Of a stretch of DNA of 64,000 bases, positions 32,389 through 46,728 are shown one piece after another. The stretch's first letter is position 1. Every line of letters begins with the position of its first letter. The stretch covers positions 7,465 through 71,464 of the forward strand of contig JBFMEV010000011.1 in NCBI GenBank assembly GCA_040752335.1, given 5' to 3'. Origin of the DNA: Chloroflexota bacterium (GTDB taxonomy: Bacteria > Chloroflexota > Limnocylindria > Limnocylindrales > CSP1-4). A program made the translations under genes and the position numbers. The notes under the pieces were generated by a model. That model saw nothing but the letters and a program-made list of their open reading frames with translations, had not been told where the DNA came from and did no database searches.

Positions 32389-33474
32389 ATGCCGCAGCTC
32401 ATAGCGTCGATCCTGGACCAGGTCAGGCCCACGACGCTCCTCGACATCGGGCTCACCGCGGTCCTCATCTACTGGCTCTTCAGCCTCATCCGCGGGACGC
32501 GAGCGGTTCGGCTGGTGATCGGCGTCAGTGTCCTGTTCGTCGTTTACTTCGCGGCCCAGGCGCTGTCCCTCCGCCTCCTCACCCAGATCCTCCAGGCGGG
32601 CGCCGTCGTCGGCCTGGTCGCGGTCGTCGTCATCTTCCAACCCGAGCTGCGGCGAGCCCTCGAGCGGATCGGTCGGGTCGGCTCGTTCGCCTGGCTCTTC
32701 CAGGCCGAGAACCGCGAGGCCGAGGAGGTTGCCTCGGCCGTCGCCCGGGCGGCAGCGCTGCTGTCCGGTGACGGCCACGGCGCCCTCATCGTCTTCGAGC
32801 GCGACACCGGGCTGGAGGAGATCGCCGAAACCGGGGTCATGATCCACGGCGATCTCACCGTCGATCTCCTCCGCACGATCTTCATGCCCCGTACCGCCCT
32901 CCACGATGGGGCCGTCATCGTCCGAGGGGCCACGGTCCTTGCCGCCGGCGCGCTCCTGCCCTTGGCCGAGACGACCGTCCATACGGAGCGGCTGGGGACC
33001 CGCCACCGGGCCGCCCTCGGGATCACCGAACAGACCGACGCGGTCGTCGTCGTCGTGTCCGAGGAGAACGGCCAGGTCAGCCTCGTCGAGCGCGCGAGGA
33101 TCGTCCGCAACCTCGGCGAGCTGCAGCTCGCCCGGGCCCTCCGCGCGCTGCTCGATCCCCAGGCTGACGGCGGCCGGTTCCGTTTCCGCTCGACCGCCGG
33201 GACGGCGCACCGATCGGCGACGAGCGGCGTCCCGTCCCGCCTCGTCGGACGAACGCCGGCCCCCGCACCGACCCCGTCACAACTCCCGAGCCCGTCCCAG
33301 CCGTCATCTCCGCCGTCCTCCGATCCGGCGGTCGCACCGGAGCCTGATGCCGCGACGGTCGCGGTGCCCGCGGCCGGTGGATCGCCGCCGCCAGGCTCGC
33401 CGCCGCCAGGCTCGTCGCCGGCAGGCTCGACGCAGACGCCTCGGCCGGCCCGGTCGGGCAACCCGGGACGATGA
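32389..33474 (+). CDS. cdaA: Diadenylate cyclase CdaA (DacA) with 3 N-terminal TM helices and a ~90-aa proline-rich C-terminal tail
   Basis: DAC-domain signatures TALHDGAVIV and LGTRHRAALGITEQTDAVVVVVSEENGQVSL. ATG 32389 was chosen inside the long spurious track ORF 31330..33474. Confidence 0.85.
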   Translation: MPQLIASILDQVRPTTLLDIGLTAVLIYWLFSLIRGTRAVRLVIGVSVLFVVYFAAQALSLRLLTQILQAGAVVGLVAVVVIFQPELRRALERIGRVGSFAWLFQAENREAEEVASAVARAAALLSGDGHGALIVFERDTGLEEIAETGVMIHGDLTVDLLRTIFMPRTALHDGAVIVRGATVLAAGALLPLAETTVHTERLGTRHRAALGITEQTDAVVVVVSEENGQVSLVERARIVRNLGELQLARALRALLDPQADGGRFRFRSTAGTAHRSATSGVPSRLVGRTPAPAPTPSQLPSPSQPSSPPSSDPAVAPEPDAATVAVPAAGGSPPPGSPPPGSSPAGSTQTPRPARSGNPGR

Positions 33475-34718
33475 CGCGAATCCTGCGCCTCGTCGTCCAC
33501 AACTGGCCCCTGAAGCTGGGGGCCGCCGCTCTGGCGACCCTGCTCTACGCCGGCCTCGTGATCTCGACGAACGCCAAGGTCTTCCCGGTCAGCATCCCGA
33601 TCGAGGCGACGGGCGCGACCGGCGACATCACGATCCTGTCCGATCTCGGCGCGGTCCGCGAGGTCCGCTACCTGGCGCCCGAGGACCTCGGGCTCCGGCT
33701 GGACAGCTCCAACTTCCGGGCGACGGTCGACCTGAGCGAGGTCGATCCGGCCGTGGGCCGTGTCTCGGTCGACGTCGAGGTCGAGGCCATCGACCCGCGT
33801 GTGACGGTCCTCGACTTCGAGCCCCGCCGGATCGTCGTCGAGCTGGACGTCGTCGTCAGCCGGACCGTCCCGGTGCGGGCGGTGATCGGACCCGTCCCGA
33901 GCGGCCTCGACGTCGGCGATCCCGTCGTCGAGGACGAGGAGGTCACGGTCACCGGTGCGGCCTCGCTCGTCGAGCGGATCGCCGAGGTCCAGGCCCGGAT
34001 CTCGGTCGATGCCTCGGGCATCGACGTCAATCGCCTCGTCGACCTGTTGCCGGTGGATCTCGCCGGCGAGCCCGTCTCGCCGGTCGACGTGGAGCCGACG
34101 TCGACCCGTGTCCGGCTGCCGATCTTCAGCGACCGCCAGACCAGGACGCTGCCGATCCGGCCGGTCGTGGCCGGCTCTCCGGCGGCCGGCTTCGAGGTCG
34201 CCTCAGTGACCGTCGATCCCATCGTCGTCGCGATCGAGGGCGACGCCGACGACCTGGCCGTGCTCGAGGTCGCCGACACCTCGCCGGTCACGATCACCGG
34301 CGCAACCTCGAACGTGACGGCCACGGCGACCCTCGAGCTCCCGGATGGGGTCCAGGCCCTCGGGGAGGTGGCGATCACGGTCACGGTGACCCTGCGCCCC
34401 GTCACCGCCTCGCGCTCGTTCGAGGCCGGCCTCATCCTCGTCGGCGCGCGGGCCGATCGCGAGTACGCGCTGTCGACCGACCGGGTGCTGGTCACGATCG
34501 GCGGCTCGATCGCCGACCTCGACCGGCTCTCGGGCTCCGATCTCGTCCTGACCCTGGACGTCACCGGCCTCGAGGCCGGGAGTCACGAGGTCAGCGTGAG
34601 CGCGAACCTCCAGACCGGGCTTACGCTGATCGGCGCGAGCCCGAACCCGATCATCGTGACGATCAGCCCGCCACCGGCCACCCCAAGCCCGCCGGCCTCG
34701 CCCAGCCCGTCGCCCTGA
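33471..34718 (+). CDS. cdaR: CdaA regulatory protein CdaR (YbbR-like domain repeats)
   Basis: 415 aa. ATGA overlap with cdaA. N-terminal TM helix followed by repeated YbbR-like beta-rich modules. Conserved cdaA-cdaR-glmM synteny. Confidence 0.75.
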   Translation: MTRILRLVVHNWPLKLGAAALATLLYAGLVISTNAKVFPVSIPIEATGATGDITILSDLGAVREVRYLAPEDLGLRLDSSNFRATVDLSEVDPAVGRVSVDVEVEAIDPRVTVLDFEPRRIVVELDVVVSRTVPVRAVIGPVPSGLDVGDPVVEDEEVTVTGAASLVERIAEVQARISVDASGIDVNRLVDLLPVDLAGEPVSPVDVEPTSTRVRLPIFSDRQTRTLPIRPVVAGSPAAGFEVASVTVDPIVVAIEGDADDLAVLEVADTSPVTITGATSNVTATATLELPDGVQALGEVAITVTVTLRPVTASRSFEAGLILVGARADREYALSTDRVLVTIGGSIADLDRLSGSDLVLTLDVTGLEAGSHEVSVSANLQTGLTLIGASPNPIIVTISPPPATPSPPASPSPSP

Positions 34719-34783
34719 CGCGCCGGACCCATACCACTCCCGATTCGAACCGCCCGCCACCCTTCCCGGAGGATCGACCGACC

Positions 34784-36118
34784 GTGGCCCGCCTGTTCGG
34801 CACCGACGGCATCCGCGGCATCGCCAACGTCGAGCTCAAGCCGACGACCGCCTACGCCCTCGGACGGGCGACCGCCCACCGGCTCGTCGGCGTCCGGGGC
34901 GCGATCGTCGTGGGCCAGGACACCCGGCGCTCCTGCGACCTCTTCGTGGCGGCCATCACGGCCGGGGCGACGAGCCTTGGGACGGACGTCCACCAGGTCG
35001 GCGTCGTGCCCACCCCGGCCCTGGCCTTCCTGGCCGGCGGTGGCGAGTACGCCGCCGGGATCATGGTTTCGGCGTCCCACAACCCGGCAGCCGACAACGG
35101 CCTCAAGGTCCTGGACCAGGACGGCCTGAAGCTCGACGACACCGTCGAGGACGAGCTCGAGCAGCTCATCTGGCGGACCGAGGAGCTGGGCGGGGTCGGC
35201 AATGACGATCTTGGCGTGGCCGTCGACGCCCGTGAGCGGACGGCCCGGTACGTCGCGGATCGGATTCGCCTCGCCTCGGCCGTGGACGCGGGCGGGCTAC
35301 GGCTCGTCCTCGACGCGGCAAACGGCTCGGGCGGCGGGGTGGGCCCCGGGATCCTCGAGGCCACCGGTGCCGCGGTCGAGGTCATCAACAACCGGCCCGA
35401 CGGGACGAACATCAACCTCCACTGCGGGGCCACCGATCCATCCGGGCTGGCCCGGGCGGTCGTCGAGCGCGGCGCCGACGTCGGGTTCGCCCTCGACGGC
35501 GACGCCGACCGGCTCATCGCGGTCGATGCCGCCGGCCGGATCGTCGACGGCGACCAGATCCTCGGCGTCCTGACCCTCGAGCGGCTCGCTCGCGACGGCC
35601 TGGCCGGTCGGACGCTGGTCGTGTCGGTTCTCTCCAACGGCGGGCTCCAGGCCGCCGTGGAGGCTGCCGGCGGGATCGTCGTCAGGACGCCCGTCGGCGA
35701 CAAGTACATCCTCGAGGGCATGCAGGTCGCCGGGGCCGGGCTCGGCGGCGAGAAGAGCGGCCACGTCATCGTCCGCGAGCACACGACGTCCGGGGACGGG
35801 ATCGTGACCGCCCTGGAGGTTCTGCGGGTCATGACCGCGGCCGGCCGGTCCCTGGCCGACCTCGCCGCGACGATCCCGCTCCTGCCGCAGCAACAGCGCG
35901 CCGTCCGGGTCCGTCACAAGGACCAGTGGGAGGGGGATCCGGTCCTCCAGCGGGCCATTCGCGAGGCGGAGACACGTCTCGGCGGGTCTGGCCGGATCCT
36001 CGTCCGGCCATCCGGCACGGAGCCCGCCCTGCGGGTGATGGTCGAAGGGCCGGACGCCGCCCTGGTCTCGGAGCTGGCCGACGCCATCGCGACCATCGCG
36101 GCCGAGCGGCTACACTGA
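34784..36118 (+). CDS. glmM: Phosphoglucosamine mutase
   Basis: GTG 34784 gives VARLFGTDGIRGIANVELKPTTAYALG.... Active-site VMVSASHNPAADNGLKV. 444 aa. The track ORF 32906..36118 has a spurious upstream extension. Confidence 0.88.
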   Translation: MARLFGTDGIRGIANVELKPTTAYALGRATAHRLVGVRGAIVVGQDTRRSCDLFVAAITAGATSLGTDVHQVGVVPTPALAFLAGGGEYAAGIMVSASHNPAADNGLKVLDQDGLKLDDTVEDELEQLIWRTEELGGVGNDDLGVAVDARERTARYVADRIRLASAVDAGGLRLVLDAANGSGGGVGPGILEATGAAVEVINNRPDGTNINLHCGATDPSGLARAVVERGADVGFALDGDADRLIAVDAAGRIVDGDQILGVLTLERLARDGLAGRTLVVSVLSNGGLQAAVEAAGGIVVRTPVGDKYILEGMQVAGAGLGGEKSGHVIVREHTTSGDGIVTALEVLRVMTAAGRSLADLAATIPLLPQQQRAVRVRHKDQWEGDPVLQRAIREAETRLGGSGRILVRPSGTEPALRVMVEGPDAALVSELADAIATIAAERLH

Positions 36119-40867: not shown

Positions 40868-41418
40868 CGCGCCTTGAACTGTGGAATGGGGACATCTGCG
40901 TCCTCGAGGTCGACGCGATTGTGAATCCCGCCAACCCGACGCTCTGGATGTCCACCGGGGTCGGTGGCGCGCTGAAGCGCGCCGGCGGCGACGCGATCGA
41001 GTTCGCCGCCGTCCGCCAGGGCCCGATCGAGCTCGGCGACGCGATCGTGACAGGCGGTGGCAACCTCGCGGCCAGGGCCGTCATCCACACCGCCTCGCTC
41101 GACCGCGACCGGCGCACGACCGCGCCGGTCCTGGAAGCCGCGGTCCGCAGCGCCCTCGCCCGGGCCCGCGAGATCGGGGCGACGAGCGTCGCCTTTCCGG
41201 CCCTCGGCACCGGTGTCGGCGGCTTCCCGCTCGACGAGGCGGCCCGGATCACGATCCAGACGGTCCGCGACGAGCTCGAGCGGAGCGAGGGGATCGAGCA
41301 CGTCGTCTTCGCCCTCCGCGGGCTGGCGGCCTACCAGGCCTTCGAGCGGGCGCTCGCCGAGGGCCCGGCCCCGGCGGCGGCGCGCCGCCCCGAGCCGACC
41401 GCCGAGGGTGGCGCATGA
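40864..41418 (+). CDS. Macro-domain protein (YmdB/O-acetyl-ADP-ribose deacetylase-like)
   Basis: GTG 40864 overlaps the alr stop (GTGA). ...ICVLEVDAIVNPANPTLWMSTGVGGALKRAGGDAIE...IHTASL... with the glycine-rich diphosphate-binding loops typical of macro domains. Confidence 0.75.
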   Translation: MTRLELWNGDICVLEVDAIVNPANPTLWMSTGVGGALKRAGGDAIEFAAVRQGPIELGDAIVTGGGNLAARAVIHTASLDRDRRTTAPVLEAAVRSALARAREIGATSVAFPALGTGVGGFPLDEAARITIQTVRDELERSEGIEHVVFALRGLAAYQAFERALAEGPAPAAARRPEPTAEGGA

Positions 41419-41717
41419 GCGAGCTCGGGACATCCGGCTTCGAGCCGACCGATGAGCAGCGCGACGAGCTCGTGGAGCAGGTCGCCCGCGAGATCCAGCT
41501 CCGTGGCCTGACCGCCCCGGCGGTCCACTTCCTCCACGCCAGCCGGCCCTATCGCCCGCTCGGCGCCAACGCGATGCTGTTCTTCGATCCGGTCCTCCGG
41601 AGCCTGTTCGGCGGCGACCTCGCCGAGGCCACCGCCCTCCTGGCCGACGACGACGGGATCGAGCAGCTCATCGAGCGCCTGGAGGAGCTCGACGAGGAGA
41701 CCGCCTGGGACGCCTGA
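41415..41717 (+). CDS. Hypothetical acidic protein (100 aa), translationally coupled to the macro-domain gene
   Basis: ATG 41415 overlaps the macro stop as ATGA. MSELGTSGFEPTDEQRDELVEQVAREIQLRGLTAPAVHFLHASRPYRPLGANAMLFFDPVLRSLFGGD... No recognisable family. Confidence 0.5.
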   Translation: MSELGTSGFEPTDEQRDELVEQVAREIQLRGLTAPAVHFLHASRPYRPLGANAMLFFDPVLRSLFGGDLAEATALLADDDGIEQLIERLEELDEETAWDA

Positions 41718-41761: not shown

Positions 41762-43390
41762 GTGACCAGGGCACCCAACGCGCTCGTCGCGGTCGACGCC
41801 GGCGCGGCCACCACCGCCGTCGCCCTGCTGGGCCGCCCCGCGGAGCGCTGGCGGCTGGTCGGCTCGCTGGCCGCCCCGGCCGGCGTCGACGAGACCGACC
41901 TGACCGAGGTCCTGGCCACCCGCGTCCGGGCGGCCGACCCGGCCCTCGCCGACGCGATCGGGCTGCGGCCCGACGGTCTCGACGGCCTGCCGCGCCTGGT
42001 GAGCCGAAGCGCCCCGCCCCGGACCCTCGTCGTCATCGGCGCCTCGCGCCGGAGCGTGGCAATCCTCGAATCGATCGCTGCCCGAACCGCCTGGCGGGTC
42101 ATCGGCGCCTCGACCGAGAGCCACGACCCCCGTGAGATGACGGAGCTGGCGCTGCGGGCCGATGTCTCGGCCGTGCTCCTCTCGGCCGGCGATCCGCCGG
42201 GTCCCGACGAGCGGCCGTCGCTCGACGACCTCGCCGGCCTCGTCGGGGCGGCGGCCCGTCGCCGACCCGAGCTCCAGGTTGTCGTGGCGCCGGCCATCCG
42301 TCGTCGAGGGGCCTGGCTCGAGAGCCTGGGCGCGGATCCGCCCGGGAATCCCGACCGGATCGTGGACGCCCCGCCGATCGGCCAGCGACGGTCCGCCGAC
42401 GAGGGCCTCCGGGACGTCCTGGACGGGCTCCTCGCCGACCGCCACGACGGCCGTCGGGGCCTCCGCGCGACCGCGGCGTCGCTGGCCGACCTTCTCGAGC
42501 GACGGGTCGAGATCGTCGAGGTCGGTCACGACGGCGGCACCCGGGTCGTGGCGGGTCCGGGCGCCCCCGGCGACGATCCGACCTGCTCGGCGGTCACGAC
42601 GGCCCGCGGCGCGCTCGTGCCGCCCGAGCCGGACGACGCGCTCGTCGACCAGGTCCTCGCCTGGACGACGGGCAGCCTCGACCGCCACCGGATGGGCGAT
42701 CGGCTGCGCGACCTCCGCGCCGCGCCGTGGTCGGACGGGGCCGGCGACGGGGCGCGCCTGCGGCTGGCGGCCGCCCGGGCGGCACTCGCCCGGATCGCGG
42801 CCCTGACGCCCGAGCTCGCCGCCCTCCCGCCCCCGGATCTGCTGATCGTCGCCGGCGGCTGCTTCGCGGTCGCGCCCGGCGCCGCGGTCATGCTCGCCGT
42901 AGCCGACACCCTGCGGCGGACCGGCGCCACCCAGGTGGCGCTCGACCCGGCCCGACTCCTTGGCCCGATCGGCACGATCGAGGATCCGCTCGAGCGGCGG
43001 GCGCTCCTGGCCGACCTCGCCGGGGATGCTCTCGTGCCCCTCGGCAGCGTCGTCCTGGCGGCCGGTCTCGGTACCCGCCGCGACGACGGGCGCGTCGGCC
43101 ATCTCACCCTCGAGCACGACGGCGCCAGGGTGGACCATGACCTCGTCGCCGGCGAGCTGGCGTTCCTCGACCTCCCGCCCGGCGCCCCTGCGACGGCGAA
43201 GTTCGAGCTGCGCGAGACCGCCCGGCTGGGTCGCCGGACCCGCCGTGTCTCGGTCGCGGTCGGCGGCGGGATCGCCGGTCTGCTCATCGACCTTCGCGAC
43301 ATCCCGCTCCGGCTGCCCGATCGGCGCGACCGCCGGCGGAGCGTGATCGCGGCCTGGTCGGCCCTGGCCTGGCCGGGAGACGAGCGATGA
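41762..43390 (+). CDS. Hypothetical 542-aa protein, possibly ASKHA-fold (GlmL/MutL-like) with a degenerate phosphate-1 motif
   Basis: GTG start. N-terminal ALVAVDAGAATTAVALLG follows the DxGxxT pattern. Later ...DLLIVAGGCFAVAPGAAVML... resembles an ASKHA adenosine motif. No confident family assignment is possible from sequence alone. Confidence 0.5.
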   Translation: MTRAPNALVAVDAGAATTAVALLGRPAERWRLVGSLAAPAGVDETDLTEVLATRVRAADPALADAIGLRPDGLDGLPRLVSRSAPPRTLVVIGASRRSVAILESIAARTAWRVIGASTESHDPREMTELALRADVSAVLLSAGDPPGPDERPSLDDLAGLVGAAARRRPELQVVVAPAIRRRGAWLESLGADPPGNPDRIVDAPPIGQRRSADEGLRDVLDGLLADRHDGRRGLRATAASLADLLERRVEIVEVGHDGGTRVVAGPGAPGDDPTCSAVTTARGALVPPEPDDALVDQVLAWTTGSLDRHRMGDRLRDLRAAPWSDGAGDGARLRLAAARAALARIAALTPELAALPPPDLLIVAGGCFAVAPGAAVMLAVADTLRRTGATQVALDPARLLGPIGTIEDPLERRALLADLAGDALVPLGSVVLAAGLGTRRDDGRVGHLTLEHDGARVDHDLVAGELAFLDLPPGAPATAKFELRETARLGRRTRRVSVAVGGGIAGLLIDLRDIPLRLPDRRDRRRSVIAAWSALAWPGDER

Positions 43391-44454
43391 CCGCGGTTCG
43401 CCGCGGCGAGGCCCGCCCCGGAACCGCGCGCGCCGCCGGCCCGGGAGCGGTCGCCCCGCCGGATGGCCTGGCCCTCGTCCGGGCCCGATCGGTGGTCATC
43501 GGGCCCGTCGAGACGACGTTTGCGCTCCGGCCCGGCGACCGGCCGCTCGTCGCCCACGGCGAGGCCGTCGTCCGGGGCGCGCCGCTCGCCGACCGTCTCC
43601 GCGATCTCCGGACCGAGGTCGTGGATGCGCCGCTCGACGCCGACGCAGCAGTCCCCGGAGGCGAGTGGACGCCGCCGCCGTCGCGCCGCCATGCCGAGCC
43701 CGCGCCGGAGCGAGGTGAGCTCCTCTTCCAGAGTGGCCGGCGCTGGCGTATCGGGACCGGCAACCATCACGAGCGACTCGAGGCGCCGTTCGCCGGGATC
43801 GTTCGCGAGGTCCGCCGCGGAACCGGGCTCGGGCTTCAGGCGCCGGCCCGGGCCGTCCTGGGCCGCGAGGTCCTGGGTGGTCCGACGTCGGGCCGCCTCG
43901 AGATCGTCGCCCCGCGAGACGGCGGGGTGCGGGCGCCCGAGATCGACGTGGGCGGGACCGGCGCAATCCTGGTCGTCGGTGCCCACATCGACGCCGAGGC
44001 GATCACCCGCGCGCGGGCGGTCGGCGTCCGGGGCATCGTGGTGGCGTCGCTCGGGGTGAAGGAGCGGCGCGACGTCCTCGCCTCGGAGCGACGGGGCCAG
44101 GCCGCGGTTCACGGCCCACCGCCGTTCGCCATCCTCGTCCTCGACGGCGCCGTGCGCCGTCCGATCGCGTCGCCGCTCATGGCGGTCCTGGAGCGCGTCA
44201 GCGGCCTCCCCGTGGCGATCGTCGACGATCCGCCCTGCCTGGTGATCGACGACGCCGGGGTGGACCTGCCCGCGCCGGAGCCGGACCTGGTGCGGGTCCT
44301 GGCCGGGCCGCTGGCCGGCGCGGAGGGTCGCTGGGCCGGTCTCGCCGGGCCGCATCGCTTCCCGGGCGGCGTGGTTCTCGAGGCCGGCTACGTCCGGTTC
44401 GGGGAGCGCCCGCCCGTCGCCGTCCCGCTGGGCGACCTGGAACGCTTCATCTGA
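43387..44454 (+). CDS. Hypothetical 355-aa protein, translationally coupled (ATGA) to the preceding gene
   Basis: ATG 43387 overlaps the upstream stop. Coding-like composition, e.g. ...GTGAILVVGAHIDAEAITRARAVGVRGIVVASLGVKERRDVL.... No recognisable domain. Confidence 0.5.
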   Translation: MTAVRRGEARPGTARAAGPGAVAPPDGLALVRARSVVIGPVETTFALRPGDRPLVAHGEAVVRGAPLADRLRDLRTEVVDAPLDADAAVPGGEWTPPPSRRHAEPAPERGELLFQSGRRWRIGTGNHHERLEAPFAGIVREVRRGTGLGLQAPARAVLGREVLGGPTSGRLEIVAPRDGGVRAPEIDVGGTGAILVVGAHIDAEAITRARAVGVRGIVVASLGVKERRDVLASERRGQAAVHGPPPFAILVLDGAVRRPIASPLMAVLERVSGLPVAIVDDPPCLVIDDAGVDLPAPEPDLVRVLAGPLAGAEGRWAGLAGPHRFPGGVVLEAGYVRFGERPPVAVPLGDLERFI

Positions 44455-44482
44455 AGGCGTCGCGCCGGCGCTCTACCGGGGA

Positions 44483-44734
44483 CTAGTCGCCAGCGCCTGC
44501 GTGGATCGGGTCGGACTTGTCGCGCCCGCATCCTGGGACGCCACAGCGTTCCCGATGAGCGTGGCCGTTGGCCACCGACACGGAGCCGATCGTCCCGTAG
44601 CTGAGCCCAGCCCCGCCACCGGGGGCTATGGCCGAGGCCCCGGGATCGAACGACTGGGTGAACCAGTGCGGCTCGCCGGGGTCAACCGACTTCGGGTCGC
44701 TCCGGCCCTGCGGGAGCCGCAACCTGAGCTTCAT
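44483..44734 (-). CDS. Small hypothetical protein (83 aa) on the minus strand, the only antisense gene in the first 50 kb
   Basis: ATG is preceded by AGAGGAG at ~9 nt. MKLRLRLPQGRSDPKSVDPGEPHWFTQSFDPGASAIAPGGGAGLSYGTIGSVSVANGHAHRERCGVPGCGRDKSDPIHAGAGD. Third-position GC is about 85%, matching the genome's coding bias. It lies in a 410-nt gap between hyp2 and tsaE. Confidence 0.45.
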   Translation of the reverse strand: MKLRLRLPQGRSDPKSVDPGEPHWFTQSFDPGASAIAPGGGAGLSYGTIGSVSVANGHAHRERCGVPGCGRDKSDPIHAGAGD

Positions 44735-44864
44735 TGTCTCGAGCTCCTCTCTCGCGCACGCCCAGCCTGGGTCAGGCACCTGGGATGTCAAGGTCCGGAT
44801 GTCCCGATCCTCGGGCGGGTGCCACGACCGGCAGGCCAGCGGACCATCGGCTACGCTCGGCCGG

Positions 44865-45368
44865 ATGACCCCTGCACAGCTCGCGATCGAGCGTGTCACG
44901 ACCAGTGAAGAGGCGACGCAGCGGCTGGCCGCGGCGCTTGCCGGCGTCGCCGCGCCCGGCGACCTGGTCTGCCTGTGGGGCGAGCTGGGCGCCGGCAAGA
45001 CAGCCTTCGCGAGGGGGTTCGGGCGAGGGCTCGGGGTCACGACCACGATCAGCTCACCGACGTTCATCCTCATGGCCGAGCACGAGGGTCGCCTGCCGCT
45101 CTTCCACCTGGACCTGTACCGGCTCACCGATGCCAGCGACGCCTGGGCCGGCGGGCTCATCGACGACCGGCAGGCCGCAGGGGTCACGCTCGTCGAGTGG
45201 CCGGATCGCTTCGGGCGGGCGCTCCCGGCTTCGCGCCTGGATGTCCGGTTCGATGGCCTCGGCGATGCGCCCCGGCGGATCCGCATCGAGACGGCGCGAT
45301 CGTCCCTGGCACGCTACGTCGCGGCAGGTGAAGCGGCCGAGCTCGACGACGCCGTGGCGGCCCGATGA
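44865..45368 (+). CDS. tsaE: tRNA threonylcarbamoyladenosine biosynthesis ATPase TsaE
   Basis: ATG 44865. MTPAQLAIERVTTSEEATQRLAAALAGVAAPGDLVCLWGELGAGKTAFARGFGRGLGV...SPTFIL... is the YjeE P-loop signature. Confidence 0.85.
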   Translation: MTPAQLAIERVTTSEEATQRLAAALAGVAAPGDLVCLWGELGAGKTAFARGFGRGLGVTTTISSPTFILMAEHEGRLPLFHLDLYRLTDASDAWAGGLIDDRQAAGVTLVEWPDRFGRALPASRLDVRFDGLGDAPRRIRIETARSSLARYVAAGEAAELDDAVAAR

Positions 45369-46072
45369 CGCCGACGCGCGACGGCCGGCCATGGCTCCTG
45401 GCGATCGACACGGGGACGTCGAAGATCGTGATCGCCGCCGGCTCGGTCGATGGCCGCGTCCTGGCCGCGATCGACGAGCCGGCCGGGCATCGTCACGGCG
45501 AGCGGCTCCTGGCCGGGGTCGAGCGGCTCGTCGGCGCAGCGCACCTCGACCTTCGGGCGCTTGCCGGGATCGTTGTGGGGATCGGGCCGGGCGCGTTCAC
45601 CGGCCTGCGGGTCGGGCTCGCGACGGCGAAGACGCTGGCCCACGCCAGGGGTCTCCCGATCGCCGGGATCGGGACCGGTGAGGCGCTGCTCCGGGCGGCC
45701 GAGACGGACCCCGGCGAACGGTCGACGCGCCGCAACGACCTCGTCCTGCTCCTGCCGGCGGGTCCCCACGACCGGCTCGAGGTTCGGCCGGGCCGCGATG
45801 CCCGCCTCCTTCCAGGCGGCATGGAACCCGACCTCGGCCCGAGCGACGTCCTCGTCGCGGTGGATCTCGCGGGCCGGGCGCCTCAGGCCGCCGTCGCCAG
45901 CGGCGAGCGGGCGCTCGCCGGCCTCGCCGCCGCACTCGTCGAGCTGGGTGCCCGGCGCCTGGCAGCCGGCTTCGGCGATGACCCGGCCCGGCTCGTGCCG
46001 GAATACGTCAGCCTGCCGCGCGGCGTCCGCGTGGCCGGCGGGGAGATCGAGTGGTCGCACGGCCCCCGGTGA
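45365..46072 (+). CDS. tsaB: tRNA t6A biosynthesis protein TsaB (YeaZ)
   Basis: ATGA overlap with tsaE. ...WLLAIDTGTSKIVIAAG... and ...GIGPGAFTGLRVGLATAKTLA... are YeaZ/Kae1-family motifs, without the metal-binding HxxH. Confidence 0.85.
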   Translation: MTPTRDGRPWLLAIDTGTSKIVIAAGSVDGRVLAAIDEPAGHRHGERLLAGVERLVGAAHLDLRALAGIVVGIGPGAFTGLRVGLATAKTLAHARGLPIAGIGTGEALLRAAETDPGERSTRRNDLVLLLPAGPHDRLEVRPGRDARLLPGGMEPDLGPSDVLVAVDLAGRAPQAAVASGERALAGLAAALVELGARRLAAGFGDDPARLVPEYVSLPRGVRVAGGEIEWSHGPR

Positions 46073-46089
46073 GGCTCCGCGTCGGCCCG

Positions 46090-46728
46090 ATGACGGTTGA
46101 TGACCTGTCCGAGGTCCACCGGATCGAGCGGGCGAGCTTCAGCGTGCCGTGGCCGGACGACGCCTATCGCAGCGAGCTCGTGGCCAACCGGCTGGCGTCG
46201 TATCTCGTCGTCCGGGTCGATGGCCAGGCCGGGATCATCGCCTACGGCGGGATCTGGCTGATGGTTGACGAGGCCCACATCACCACCTTCGCGGTCGATC
46301 CTGCCTGGCGCCGCCAGGGGGTGGGGGAGACGCTCCTCACGGCGCTCCTCGACCTGGCCGTGGCCCGTCACGCCCGGGAAGCGACGCTCGAGGTCCGGCT
46401 GTCCAACCTTCCGGCCCGGCGCCTCTATGAGAAGTACGGCTTCCGGCCGGTCGGCCTCAGGCCGCGCTACTACTCCGACAACGGCGAGGATGCCCTGATC
46501 ATGACCACCGAGCCGCTGACCGGCGGTTCGATGCGAGGGCGCCTCGCCGCTCTCCGCGCGGCGCTCGAGGCGGCGCCGCCGCCGTCGGGTCCCGCCGAGA
46601 TCGCCGGGCCGGGATCGCCCGGTGGGGCGATCGAGCCGCCCGGTGGCGCGATCGAGCCGCCCGGTGGCGCGATCGACCCGCCCGGCGCTCGGCCGCTGGC
46701 CCCGCGCGGCCCCGGTCCACGCTCGTGA
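46090..46728 (+). CDS. rimI: Ribosomal-protein-alanine N-acetyltransferase with a C-terminal (PGGAIEP)x3 repeat tail
   Basis: GNAT motifs ...AVDPAWRRQGVGETLL... and ...YEKYGF. A 21-bp in-frame tandem lies at 46618..46690. The start could instead be ATG 46051, which overlaps tsaB. Confidence 0.8.
   Translation: MTVDDLSEVHRIERASFSVPWPDDAYRSELVANRLASYLVVRVDGQAGIIAYGGIWLMVDEAHITTFAVDPAWRRQGVGETLLTALLDLAVARHAREATLEVRLSNLPARRLYEKYGFRPVGLRPRYYSDNGEDALIMTTEPLTGGSMRGRLAALRAALEAAPPPSGPAEIAGPGSPGGAIEPPGGAIEPPGGAIDPPGARPLAPRGPGPRS
46618..46690 (+). repeat. 21-bp tandem repeat x3.3 (CCCGGTGGCGCGATCGAGCCG) inside the rimI 3' end
   Basis: The copies are directly visible at 46618-46638, 46639-46659 and 46660-46680, with a partial fourth. 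They encode PGGAIEP repeats. Confidence 0.9.

Follow-up and report, generated by a model that had tools for sequence, protein, structure and literature searches.

One account (PMC4682846) presents GlmL as a chaperone by which glutamate mutase is reactivated. The gene of GlmL proper accompanies those for the subunits of an adenosylcobalamin-dependent mutase (glmS/glmE or oraS/oraE), and the proteins of the GlmL/MutL family (PF13941; TIGR01319; NF040745; NF040744, ornithine degradation) are widely annotated, while their mechanism is barely characterised. Two genes that bear on this family, here called A and B, are found in a 64,000-nucleotide (nt) stretch of DNA from a Chloroflexota bacterium, referred to below as the window (GenBank assembly GCA_040752335.1, contig JBFMEV010000011.1, positions 7,465 to 71,464 of the forward strand). 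Gene A (41762..43390, + strand) has a GTG start and encodes 542 amino acids (aa), and gene B (43387..44454, + strand) has an ATG start and encodes 355 aa. They lie between alr and a macro-domain gene on one side and tsaE, tsaB and tsaD on the other. An earlier reading of the letters and their open reading frames (ORFs), the sequence-only reading, had singled them out as a translationally coupled pair of unrecognised proteins, the first perhaps with a degenerate actin-like (ASKHA) fold. The present analysis shows that A and B belong, together with a small acidic gene S, to a module conserved throughout the class Limnocylindria, and indicates that A descends from the GlmL/MutL lineage. The explanation favoured overall, with a probability of about 0.55, is that S, A and B form a complex around a GlmL-type nucleotide switch that serves as a maintenance or assembly factor.

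A three-gene module of the Limnocylindria

The coordinates and lengths of the two ORFs are as the sequence-only reading had given them, and the ATGA at 43387..43390 (+ strand; local sequence CGAGCGATGACCGCG) is common to the stop codon of A and the start codon of B, an overlap read as translational coupling. The G+C content of the region is 76-79%, so long ORFs are by themselves no proof of genes. The G+C contents at the three codon positions (GC1/2/3) are 0.84/0.58/0.91 in A and 0.86/0.57/0.89 in B, and those of the reference genes alr and tsaD are 0.80/0.58/0.93 and 0.78/0.51/0.90, respectively; the codon bias is thus typical of the genome, as had been claimed, with GC3 values like those of alr and tsaD. 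The pattern is specific to the frame and is lacking in the remaining two frames of A.

No Pfam or NCBIfam model matched A or B in whole-protein scans. Homologues are nevertheless found in 743 clusters at 90% identity for A and 884 for B, all of them unnamed or 'hypothetical' and with source labels of Chloroflexota or Candidatus Limnocylindrales/Limnocylindria. The records identical at 100% to A and B are AB1736_06200 and AB1736_06205, from a metagenome-assembled genome (MAG) of a 'Chloroflexota bacterium'. When one genome was scanned for each GTDB species, relatives of A turned up in 358 stretches; of the 80 best, almost all bear the label Limnocylindria or Chloroflexota. The alignments of A and B have mean column identities of 70% and 68%, respectively, with dense invariant columns. 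A and B are confirmed as real, conserved genes of a host in the Chloroflexota class Limnocylindria. The labels of the homologues and of the GTDB relatives show that the window is not actinobacterial, contrary to the 'actinobacterial-type neighbourhood' proposed from the sequence.

Long spurious ORFs are common at such G+C contents, and many occur here on both strands, but the idea that A and B are non-coding frame artefacts of a 76% G+C genome can be dismissed: the GC3 pattern is frame-specific, the AlphaFold2 (AF2) models of both proteins are confident, synteny is conserved, and conservation already refutes it: there are hundreds of homologues, their protein identity is 46-84%, their length is conserved and their alignments have invariant columns. 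A lack of conservation is what the sequence-only reading had named as the sign of such artefacts.

Six GTDB genome contigs (L014, L024, L034, L041, L047 and L048) that encode an A protein at 57-59% identity are labelled Dormiibacterota, Patescibacteria, Binatia, Deferrimicrobiaceae, Solirubrobacterales and Eisenbacteria. They carry S and B in the same order where the flank suffices, which suggests mis-binned or mislabelled MAG contigs.

The genes on either side could be assigned, as the sequence-only reading held. The Pfam scan identified acpS, nnrD (Carb_kinase), alr and the macro-domain gene upstream, and tsaE, tsaB, rimI, tsaD and rsmA downstream. Synteny was measured in 82 species-level loci of the crown group, with the loci that have enough flank as denominators. 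B lies directly 3' of A in 70/70 crown loci and in 8/8 loci of the deep-branching group, and is followed by tsaE in 67/67 and 6/6, respectively. S is upstream of A in all 80 short-form loci (those with a short distance between alr and A, see below), alr is upstream in 70/74 crown loci and the macro gene is present in 48/79. An NTGA start/stop overlap is available between A and B in 79 of the 89 loci with both genes (56 ATGA, 23 GTGA), and the 4-nt overlap also appears in the gene calls of four loci (L001, L002, L100 and L101). The neighbourhood comparison that had been proposed as a check therefore shows that A and B always co-occur, and at one place. The idea of an insertion, which suggests something sporadic, is not supported: the genes are fixed at this position across the class, together with S and, in the deep branches, with four membrane-protein genes. 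S-A-B is a vertically inherited, class-wide three-gene module of the Limnocylindria, within a housekeeping super-operon between alr/macro and tsaE.

Some metagenomic proteins join A and B in a single chain (P0363, P0340, P0353, P0303, P0294 and P0273). They were rejected as true fusions and are most likely read-through or frameshift artefacts; in P0363 the A-B chain even continues into TsaE, a sign of calls that are frameshifted or read through.

Rates of change were compared using pairwise protein-distance matrices for nine genes from 45 loci, from which the mean housekeeping distance was regressed out. The correlation of the distance matrices of A and B (0.92) is the highest of all gene pairs. 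Their residual correlation is 0.69, a value reached by none of 2000 taxon permutations, followed by those of S with A (0.40), A with tsaD (0.39) and B with tsaD (0.35); all other pairs are below 0.3. This finding is evidence that A has co-evolved with B and, less strongly, with S; it fits a physical complex as well as another form of tight functional coupling.

Gene S (41415..41717, + strand), which the sequence-only reading had missed, is an ORF conserved upstream of A and encodes a 100-aa acidic protein (22 D/E, 7 R and no K) with no predicted transmembrane (TM) segment and a GC3 of 0.94. Its ATG overlaps the stop codon of the macro-domain gene as ATGA (41415-41418), and it ends 44 nt before A. 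Relatives with gene calls have a gene of 98-105 aa at this position. Its median identity to the window copy, 82%, is the highest of the trio (59% for A and 60% for B), and its mean pairwise distance of 0.19 is similar to that of tsaD. S has no match in Pfam or NCBIfam and no relative in the PDB (profile A10). Matches of S to one helix motif of designed alphaRep HEAT-like repeats were treated as chance.

In the deep branches the module takes a longer form. The genome that encodes the deep-branch A protein P0387 (locus L100) has a super-operon in the order ybbR-glmM-glmS-acpS-nnrD-alr, then seven genes, then tsaE-tsaB-rimI-tsaD-rsmA-ispE-ridA. The first of the seven encodes an S-like protein of 85 aa, 47% identical to S, and the sixth and seventh are A and B. 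Between them lie four genes for membrane proteins: one of 282 aa with terminal TM segments and a match to DUF6754 (2.3e-7), a polytopic protein of 204 aa, one of 261 aa with TM anchors at the N- and C-terminus, and a second polytopic protein, of 214 aa, the gene of which overlaps A by 4 nt. None of the four has a characterised family. The block occupies 6862..10004 of L100 and about 5852..7947 of L094, and is also present in L085 and L089, so that all four genes are found in 4/4 deep-group loci with a measurable distance between alr and A. For two of these genes, homologues are also seen in most of the remaining metagenome contigs of the deep group.

Gene A, its descent and its partner B

The AF2 model of A (predicted local distance difference test score, pLDDT, 89.1; predicted template-modelling score, pTM, 0.90) contains two tandem beta-beta-beta-alpha subdomains, which are the signature of the ASKHA fold. 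In the first, strands 7-13, 17-24 and 31-39 are followed by helix 44-58, and in the second, strands 249-254, 259-265 and 274-280 are followed by helices. Comparison with the PDB using Foldseek gave 115 matches at E<=1e-3, the best 50 of which are all ASKHA proteins. The best are an N-methylhydantoinase (9h03_A, E 4.9e-7) and an acetophenone carboxylase (5l9w_b, 5.5e-6), with TM-scores of 0.24-0.27, low values that are expected for a multidomain query; others include Hsp70s, glycerol and acetate kinases, PilM and Ppx.

The descent of A was traced by profile searches. The alignment of A, searched against 1.84 billion representatives, matched 762 proteins at E<=1e-3, including P0387 (562 aa; E 2e-27), which carries the NCBI name 'glutamate mutase L [Candidatus Limnocylindria bacterium]'. 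By BLASTP, A and P0387 share 29% identity over residues 1-532 (E 5e-18). P0387 matches PF13941 (MutL) at 2.2e-24 with 86.5 bits, which passes the gathering score of 27 bits, and its homologue in L094 matches at 6.3e-27 with 94.9 bits, covering profile positions 4-442 of 450 with residues 1-401. Alignment of the crown A profile (A1) with the deep-branch profile (A6) using hhalign gave a probability of 99.9% and an E-value of 7.9e-34 over 512 columns. The homology of A to bona fide members of the GlmL/MutL family extends over the full length, and together the match to P0387, the MutL scores of the deep relatives and the hhalign result make it highly probable that A descends from the GlmL/MutL lineage. 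The likeness to GlmL suspected from the sequence is thereby borne out in both fold and homology.

A is not GlmL proper. PF13941 matched neither the window protein nor any of the 38 crown members, even at E<=1, and none of 14 intermediate members; A itself has no match to the NCBIfam GlmL models. The A protein of L100 scores 41.5 bits against TIGR01319 (glmL_fam, cut-off 204) and 38.7 bits against NF040745 (accessory_GlmL equivalog, cut-off 475). Judged by these profiles, crown A has diverged past recognition by Pfam.

Two peptides of A had been pointed out as a DxGxxT pattern and as a likeness to an adenosine motif, namely ALVAVDAGAATTAVALLG (residues 7-24) and IVAGGCFAVAPG (residues 361-372), and both fall at the corresponding positions of the model. 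The PHOSPHATE-1 position (residues 9-20, VAVDAGAATTAV; 41786..41821, + strand) is the first beta-hairpin of the AF2 model, where Asp12, Gly14 and Thr17 are invariant and kept in all groups. Where the GlmL-type DxGSxxTK loop has Ser/Thr and Lys, the crown group has Ala. The alignment across groups reveals a gradient from DxGSAWTK in the deep group through DRGTAxT in the intermediate group to DAGAATT in the crown, so that the loop of window A is eroded relative to its deep-branch relatives, in agreement with the substitutions first noticed. The PHOSPHATE-2 position (residues 249-261, VEIVEVGHDGGTR; 42506..42544, + strand) is the first hairpin of subdomain II and retains its acidic residue (E/D253), with Gly255, Gly259 and Arg261 invariant. 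At the ADENOSINE-motif position (residues 359-372, DLLIVAGGCFAVAP; 42836..42877, + strand) a strand (360-364) leads through the GG to a helix (373-383), and D359, G365, G366 and P372 are invariant. The long form of the module, with the membrane genes, goes with an intact GlmL-like phosphate-1 loop and recognition by Pfam, and the short form with an eroded loop.

Two further regions of A stand out. An alternating beta/alpha domain, residues 78-200 (41993..42361, + strand), is inserted in ASKHA subdomain I according to the predicted secondary structure and the conservation, and carries the family-specific motifs AS(T/P)E(T/S)HDPRE and GDPPGPDER. The equivalent region falls inside the MutL match of the deep-branch protein (residues 9-215, profile positions 2-196). 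Matches to B12-binding domains in 4 of the 38 A members (best E 0.037) are not significant and were treated as noise. The second region, residues 425-542 (43034..43387, + strand), is predicted to be a C-terminal beta-sandwich with a terminal helix (strands within 425-510, helix 522-536). Since residues 1-401 of the deep-branch protein use up the 450 positions of the MutL profile, the last ~120 residues lie outside the MutL domain. They include a hallmark motif, GGxxGxxxDxRxxPLxLPxRxxxRRxxLxxW (window residues 502-532; 43265-43357), which is kept in the crown, intermediate and deep groups. Profile searches of the PDB sequences with A1 and A6 gave nothing usable, and in these searches no relative with a solved structure was detectable by sequence.

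B is likewise a protein without a Pfam or NCBIfam family. The AF2 model (pLDDT 84.8, pTM 0.79) has a disordered stretch at residues 1-19 followed by three domains. A repeated profile search that included deep-branch sequences gave 911 matches; the 120 listed all belong to the same family, with no outside relatives among them, and B appears to be confined to the Limnocylindria. The crown and deep-branch forms are homologous (hhalign probability 99.2%, E 1e-19, 312 columns). The sequence-only reading had found no recognisable domain in B, which holds for whole-protein Pfam thresholds and fails for the domain profiles and the model: with modest confidence, B consists of a beta domain like the sandwich-barrel hybrid motif (SBHM), a conserved alpha/beta domain and a KOW-like barrel.

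The N-terminal domain of B (residues 27-175; 43465..43911, + strand) is all-beta and resembles the SBHM, a lipoyl-like type. Its profile (A9, crown and deep sequences) matches the SBHM repeats of the Thermus RNA polymerase (RNAP) beta' subunit with a whole-chain E of 2.7e-6, the single stretches being weak, as well as cyanobacterial Si3 (2.6e-4), domain II of Thermotoga maritima NusG (2.6e-3) and biotinyl domains (E 0.2-0.5). The top Foldseek match of B is T. maritima NusG (2xhc, 6.5e-4), with RnfC (8rbm_C, probability 0.96), Si3 (8emb) and eS4 also found. The C-terminal domain (residues 299-355; 44281..44451, + strand) resembles the KOW (SH3-like) barrel. The profile of this domain (A8, crown and deep sequences) matches Spt5 KOW repeats at 6e-4, GPKOW at 2.6e-3, and uL24 and the NusG KOW at 0.03-0.5; Foldseek matches the barrel to NusG and eS4, and Pfam KOW (PF00467) has weak sub-threshold matches in 9 of the 38 B members (best E 0.027). 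The scan of these 38 members detected neither an NGN domain nor Pfam NusG, and B, having no NGN domain, is not a NusG paralogue.

The central domain (residues 176-298; 43912..44280, + strand), modelled as beta-alpha-beta-alpha-beta-alpha-beta-beta, is the best-conserved part of B across the crown and deep groups, with D187, G192, G198, E204, T207-R-A-R-A211, G213, G216, K225, E226 and R236. Its local Foldseek matches are the PA domain of ZNRF3, MccF and kynurenine formamidase, which we take to share the SCOP 'swivelling beta/beta/alpha' fold, and this provides a lead for the domain. A profile of this domain (A4) found nothing significant among the PDB sequences, and that of B (A2) nothing usable. 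Sub-threshold matches of B to DUF7406 were treated as noise. A likeness of IDAEAITRARAVGVRG in B to the phosphohistidine motif of phosphoenolpyruvate utilizers was dropped, as it has no support from searches and no invariant His.

Proposed function and alternative explanations

In the favoured explanation, A and B would be produced in a fixed ratio by means of the conserved NTGA overlap and would form a stable hetero-complex, probably with S; that A and B form a complex is very probable. A would supply a nucleotide-dependent conformational switch, possibly reduced in crown A to binding only, and the target would be bound by surfaces of B. If the GlmL-type accessory proteins and the two-subunit ASKHA reactivases are a guide, the complex may maintain or assemble another component of the cell rather than work as a metabolic enzyme. 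Action as a nucleotide switch or in a chaperone-like manner is proposed tentatively, from analogy.

As to the target, no B12-binding or mutase domains were found among the ~20 neighbouring genes of the four gene-called loci (the window, L001, L002 and L100), where the neighbours are ybbR, glmM, glmS (the amidotransferase), acpS, nnrD, alr, macro, tsaE, tsaB, rimI, tsaD, rsmA, ispE and ridA. The target is therefore not a neighbouring B12 mutase. The deep loci couple the pair to four membrane proteins, which makes a membrane-associated target the leading guess, although a doubtful one. In its boldest form, which is equally speculative, S-A-B would be the soluble core of an undescribed membrane-associated machine, universal in the Limnocylindria and unrelated to the repair of B12 enzymes. 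The full, deep-branch form of this machine would include the four membrane proteins, one of them with DUF6754. For its motor or switch, the machine would have taken on an ASKHA protein of the GlmL type, which in the crown would have decayed to a nucleotide-independent scaffold locked to its SBHM/KOW partner.

Several observations weigh against the favoured explanation. The role of GlmL is itself poorly established by experiment, which leaves the analogy with a weak reference point. Crown A, with DAGAATT, lacks the Ser/Thr and Lys that usually hold the phosphates, which makes the use of ATP by window A doubtful. The four membrane genes are absent from 75/75 short-form loci measured (alr to A 0.3-1.3 kb) and from the whole 64-kb window, and may have entered the deep branch secondarily instead of being ancestral partners. 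KOW and SBHM domains are most familiar in proteins of transcription and translation, and the products of the downstream genes tsaEBD, rimI and rsmA act on tRNA, ribosomal protein or rRNA, all of which points to another type of target. For the central domain of B, the assignment is drawn only from local Foldseek matches with low TM-scores. Lastly, rate covariation and operon coupling would also fit two enzymes of one pathway.

The most probable of the alternatives, itself unlikely, is that A and B are two subunits of an ATP-dependent enzyme of the hydantoinase, oxoprolinase or acetone carboxylase type. A would phosphorylate a small substrate as HyuA does, and B, a subunit of a new type, would serve in catalysis or as a carrier, with the lipoyl-like SBHM domain and a mobile alpha/beta domain as a swinging arm. 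The best Foldseek matches of A (9h03_A and 5l9w_b) are of this type, and the description of TIGR01319 presumably likens the proteins of the GlmL family to the hydantoinase branch. The strict 1:1 coupling and the rate covariation suit a heteromeric enzyme, the active site of which could be lined by the invariant charged residues of B (R72, R182, D187, E204, R208, R210, K225, E226 and R236). Neither A, B nor their relatives have a hydantoinase match in Pfam or NCBIfam, however, the sole family matched by A and its relatives being MutL/GlmL, and B has no similarity to HyuB and no invariant His or Cys. Most of the class has an eroded phosphate-1 loop, which one would not expect if purifying selection acted on an enzyme that consumes ATP, and no neighbouring gene suggests a substrate pathway.

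It appears quite unlikely that RNA or the translation machinery is the target of the module, which might for instance assist t6A tRNA modification or ribosome maturation. The KOW and SBHM domains of B would then bind RNA, the ribosome or RNAP, and A would be a third ASKHA protein beside TsaB and TsaD. The genes tsaB, rimI, tsaD and rsmA come after the tsaE that follows B in all the loci counted above, the domain matches of B are to the KOW of Spt5, NusG and uL24 and to the SBHM inserts of RNAP beta' and NusG domain II, and the residual correlations of A and B with tsaD rank next after those of A-B and S-A. The junction of alr with tsaE-tsaB-rimI-tsaD joins two housekeeping operons and is widespread in bacteria without S-A-B, so adjacency to the t6A genes says little. 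In addition, a 410-nt gap with a small antisense ORF separates B from tsaE in the window, B has no NGN domain, no match to Pfam NusG and no similarity to TsaC/Sua5, and the deep-branch link to four membrane proteins does not fit a role in RNA.

Given the descent of A, A-B could also be a genuine GlmL-type reactivase whose client, an adenosylcobalamin-dependent enzyme, has its gene in another part of the genome; this is very unlikely. By the names of their models, the subfamilies accessory_GlmL and GlmL-related ornithine degradation protein accompany B12 aminomutases or mutases, GlmL has been called a reactivating chaperone (PMC4682846), and the 4 A members with B12-binding-domain matches could be counted in its favour. 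Those matches are not significant, no mutase gene lies within ~10 kb on either side in the loci examined, and the deep-branch proteins score far below the GlmL cut-offs. Glutamate mutase operons contain nothing that corresponds to the C-terminal extension of A, to B or S, or to the membrane genes.

Neighbouring genes and comparison with known systems

Rfam, promoter and terminator scans of the region found no element or signal. The distance from the stop codon of B to the probable start of tsaE (ATG 44865) is ~410 nt (44455..44864), compared with 20-77 nt in L001 and L002. This gap contains an antisense ORF (44483..44734, - strand) of 83 aa, which begins MKLRLRLPQGRSDPKS and ends HAHRERCGVPGCGRDKSDPIH, with a GC3 of 0.845 and no Pfam match. 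A 58%-identical copy is present at the same place in L003, the closest GTDB relative, and in no other locus. The mechanically called tsaE ORF (44628..45368, 246 aa) has an N-terminal extension of ~79 residues, with the TsaE domain starting at residue 92; the tsaE products of relatives have 165-175 aa, which makes ATG 44865 the probable start. At the 3' end of rimI (46051..46728) there is a 21-nt tandem repeat (46616..46685, 3.3 copies, 95% matches) that encodes GGAIEPP repeats in the C-terminal tail of the RimI-like acetyltransferase, before the overlapping start of tsaD. Further upstream, a mechanically called ORF of 1070 aa (32906..36118) is a glmM-type phosphoglucosamine mutase. It includes ~600 upstream codons of Arg/Pro/Gly-rich open frame, and the real gene is probably the last ~450 codons (444 aa in L001).

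No functional study of the S-A-B module was found in the literature searched, from which the three-gene and the seven-gene modules are both absent. A represents a strongly diverged form within a family that is known but little understood, and B and S are unannotated families. The analysis thus defines three unannotated families (S, B and crown A) and one conserved seven-gene module, from which family models could be built for the annotation of Chloroflexota MAGs; these are abundant in soils and fresh water, and the module occurs only in uncultured organisms.

The closest structural matches of A in the PDB are the ATP-binding subunits of hydantoinase A, N-methylhydantoinase and acetophenone carboxylase. 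These resemble A in being ASKHA proteins that work only with a second subunit. They differ in that A has no match to their sequence families, B is unrelated to HyuB and the TM-scores are low.

B resembles NusG/Spt5 and the SBHM inserts in its KOW-like C-terminus and SBHM-like N-terminus, with NusG (2xhc) as the top structural match. SBHMs have been described as surface-exposed inserts of RNAP (PMC10895346; 10.1101/2021.01.27.428476). B differs from NusG/Spt5 in its domain order (SBHM-alpha/beta-KOW), in the absence of NGN and in its central alpha/beta domain, which has no counterpart in NusG; the scores per stretch are weak.

With the reactivases DdrA/DdrB and EutA the module shares a concept, an ASKHA switch with a small partner that remodels a client enzyme. 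DdrA presumably carries a swivelling beta/beta/alpha domain, the fold class of the Foldseek matches of the central domain of B. There is no sequence match or direct structural match to these systems, DdrA/DdrB being absent among the 50 Foldseek matches listed for each protein, and no B12 dehydratase genes are found near S-A-B among the neighbours in the window and L100.

A is like GlmL/MutL in its ASKHA fold, in the alpha/beta insert in subdomain I and in the placing of the phosphate-1 Asp, the phosphate-2 acidic residue and the adenosine GG. It differs in having no match to the GlmL models, in a phosphate-1 loop without Ser/Thr and Lys, and in ~120 additional residues at the C-terminus, a domain with an Arg-rich motif. 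Glutamate mutase operons have neither B nor S, whereas A is always paired with both and, unlike GlmL proper, has no adjacent B12 mutase. Within the lineage the phosphate-1 loop grades from intact to eroded, a series provided by nature on which the purpose of the nucleotide site could be probed. That a GlmL descendant has been kept throughout a class with no B12 mutase nearby, tied to two partners and, in the deep branches, to four membrane proteins, suggests that the GlmL scaffold has uses beyond the reactivation of mutases.

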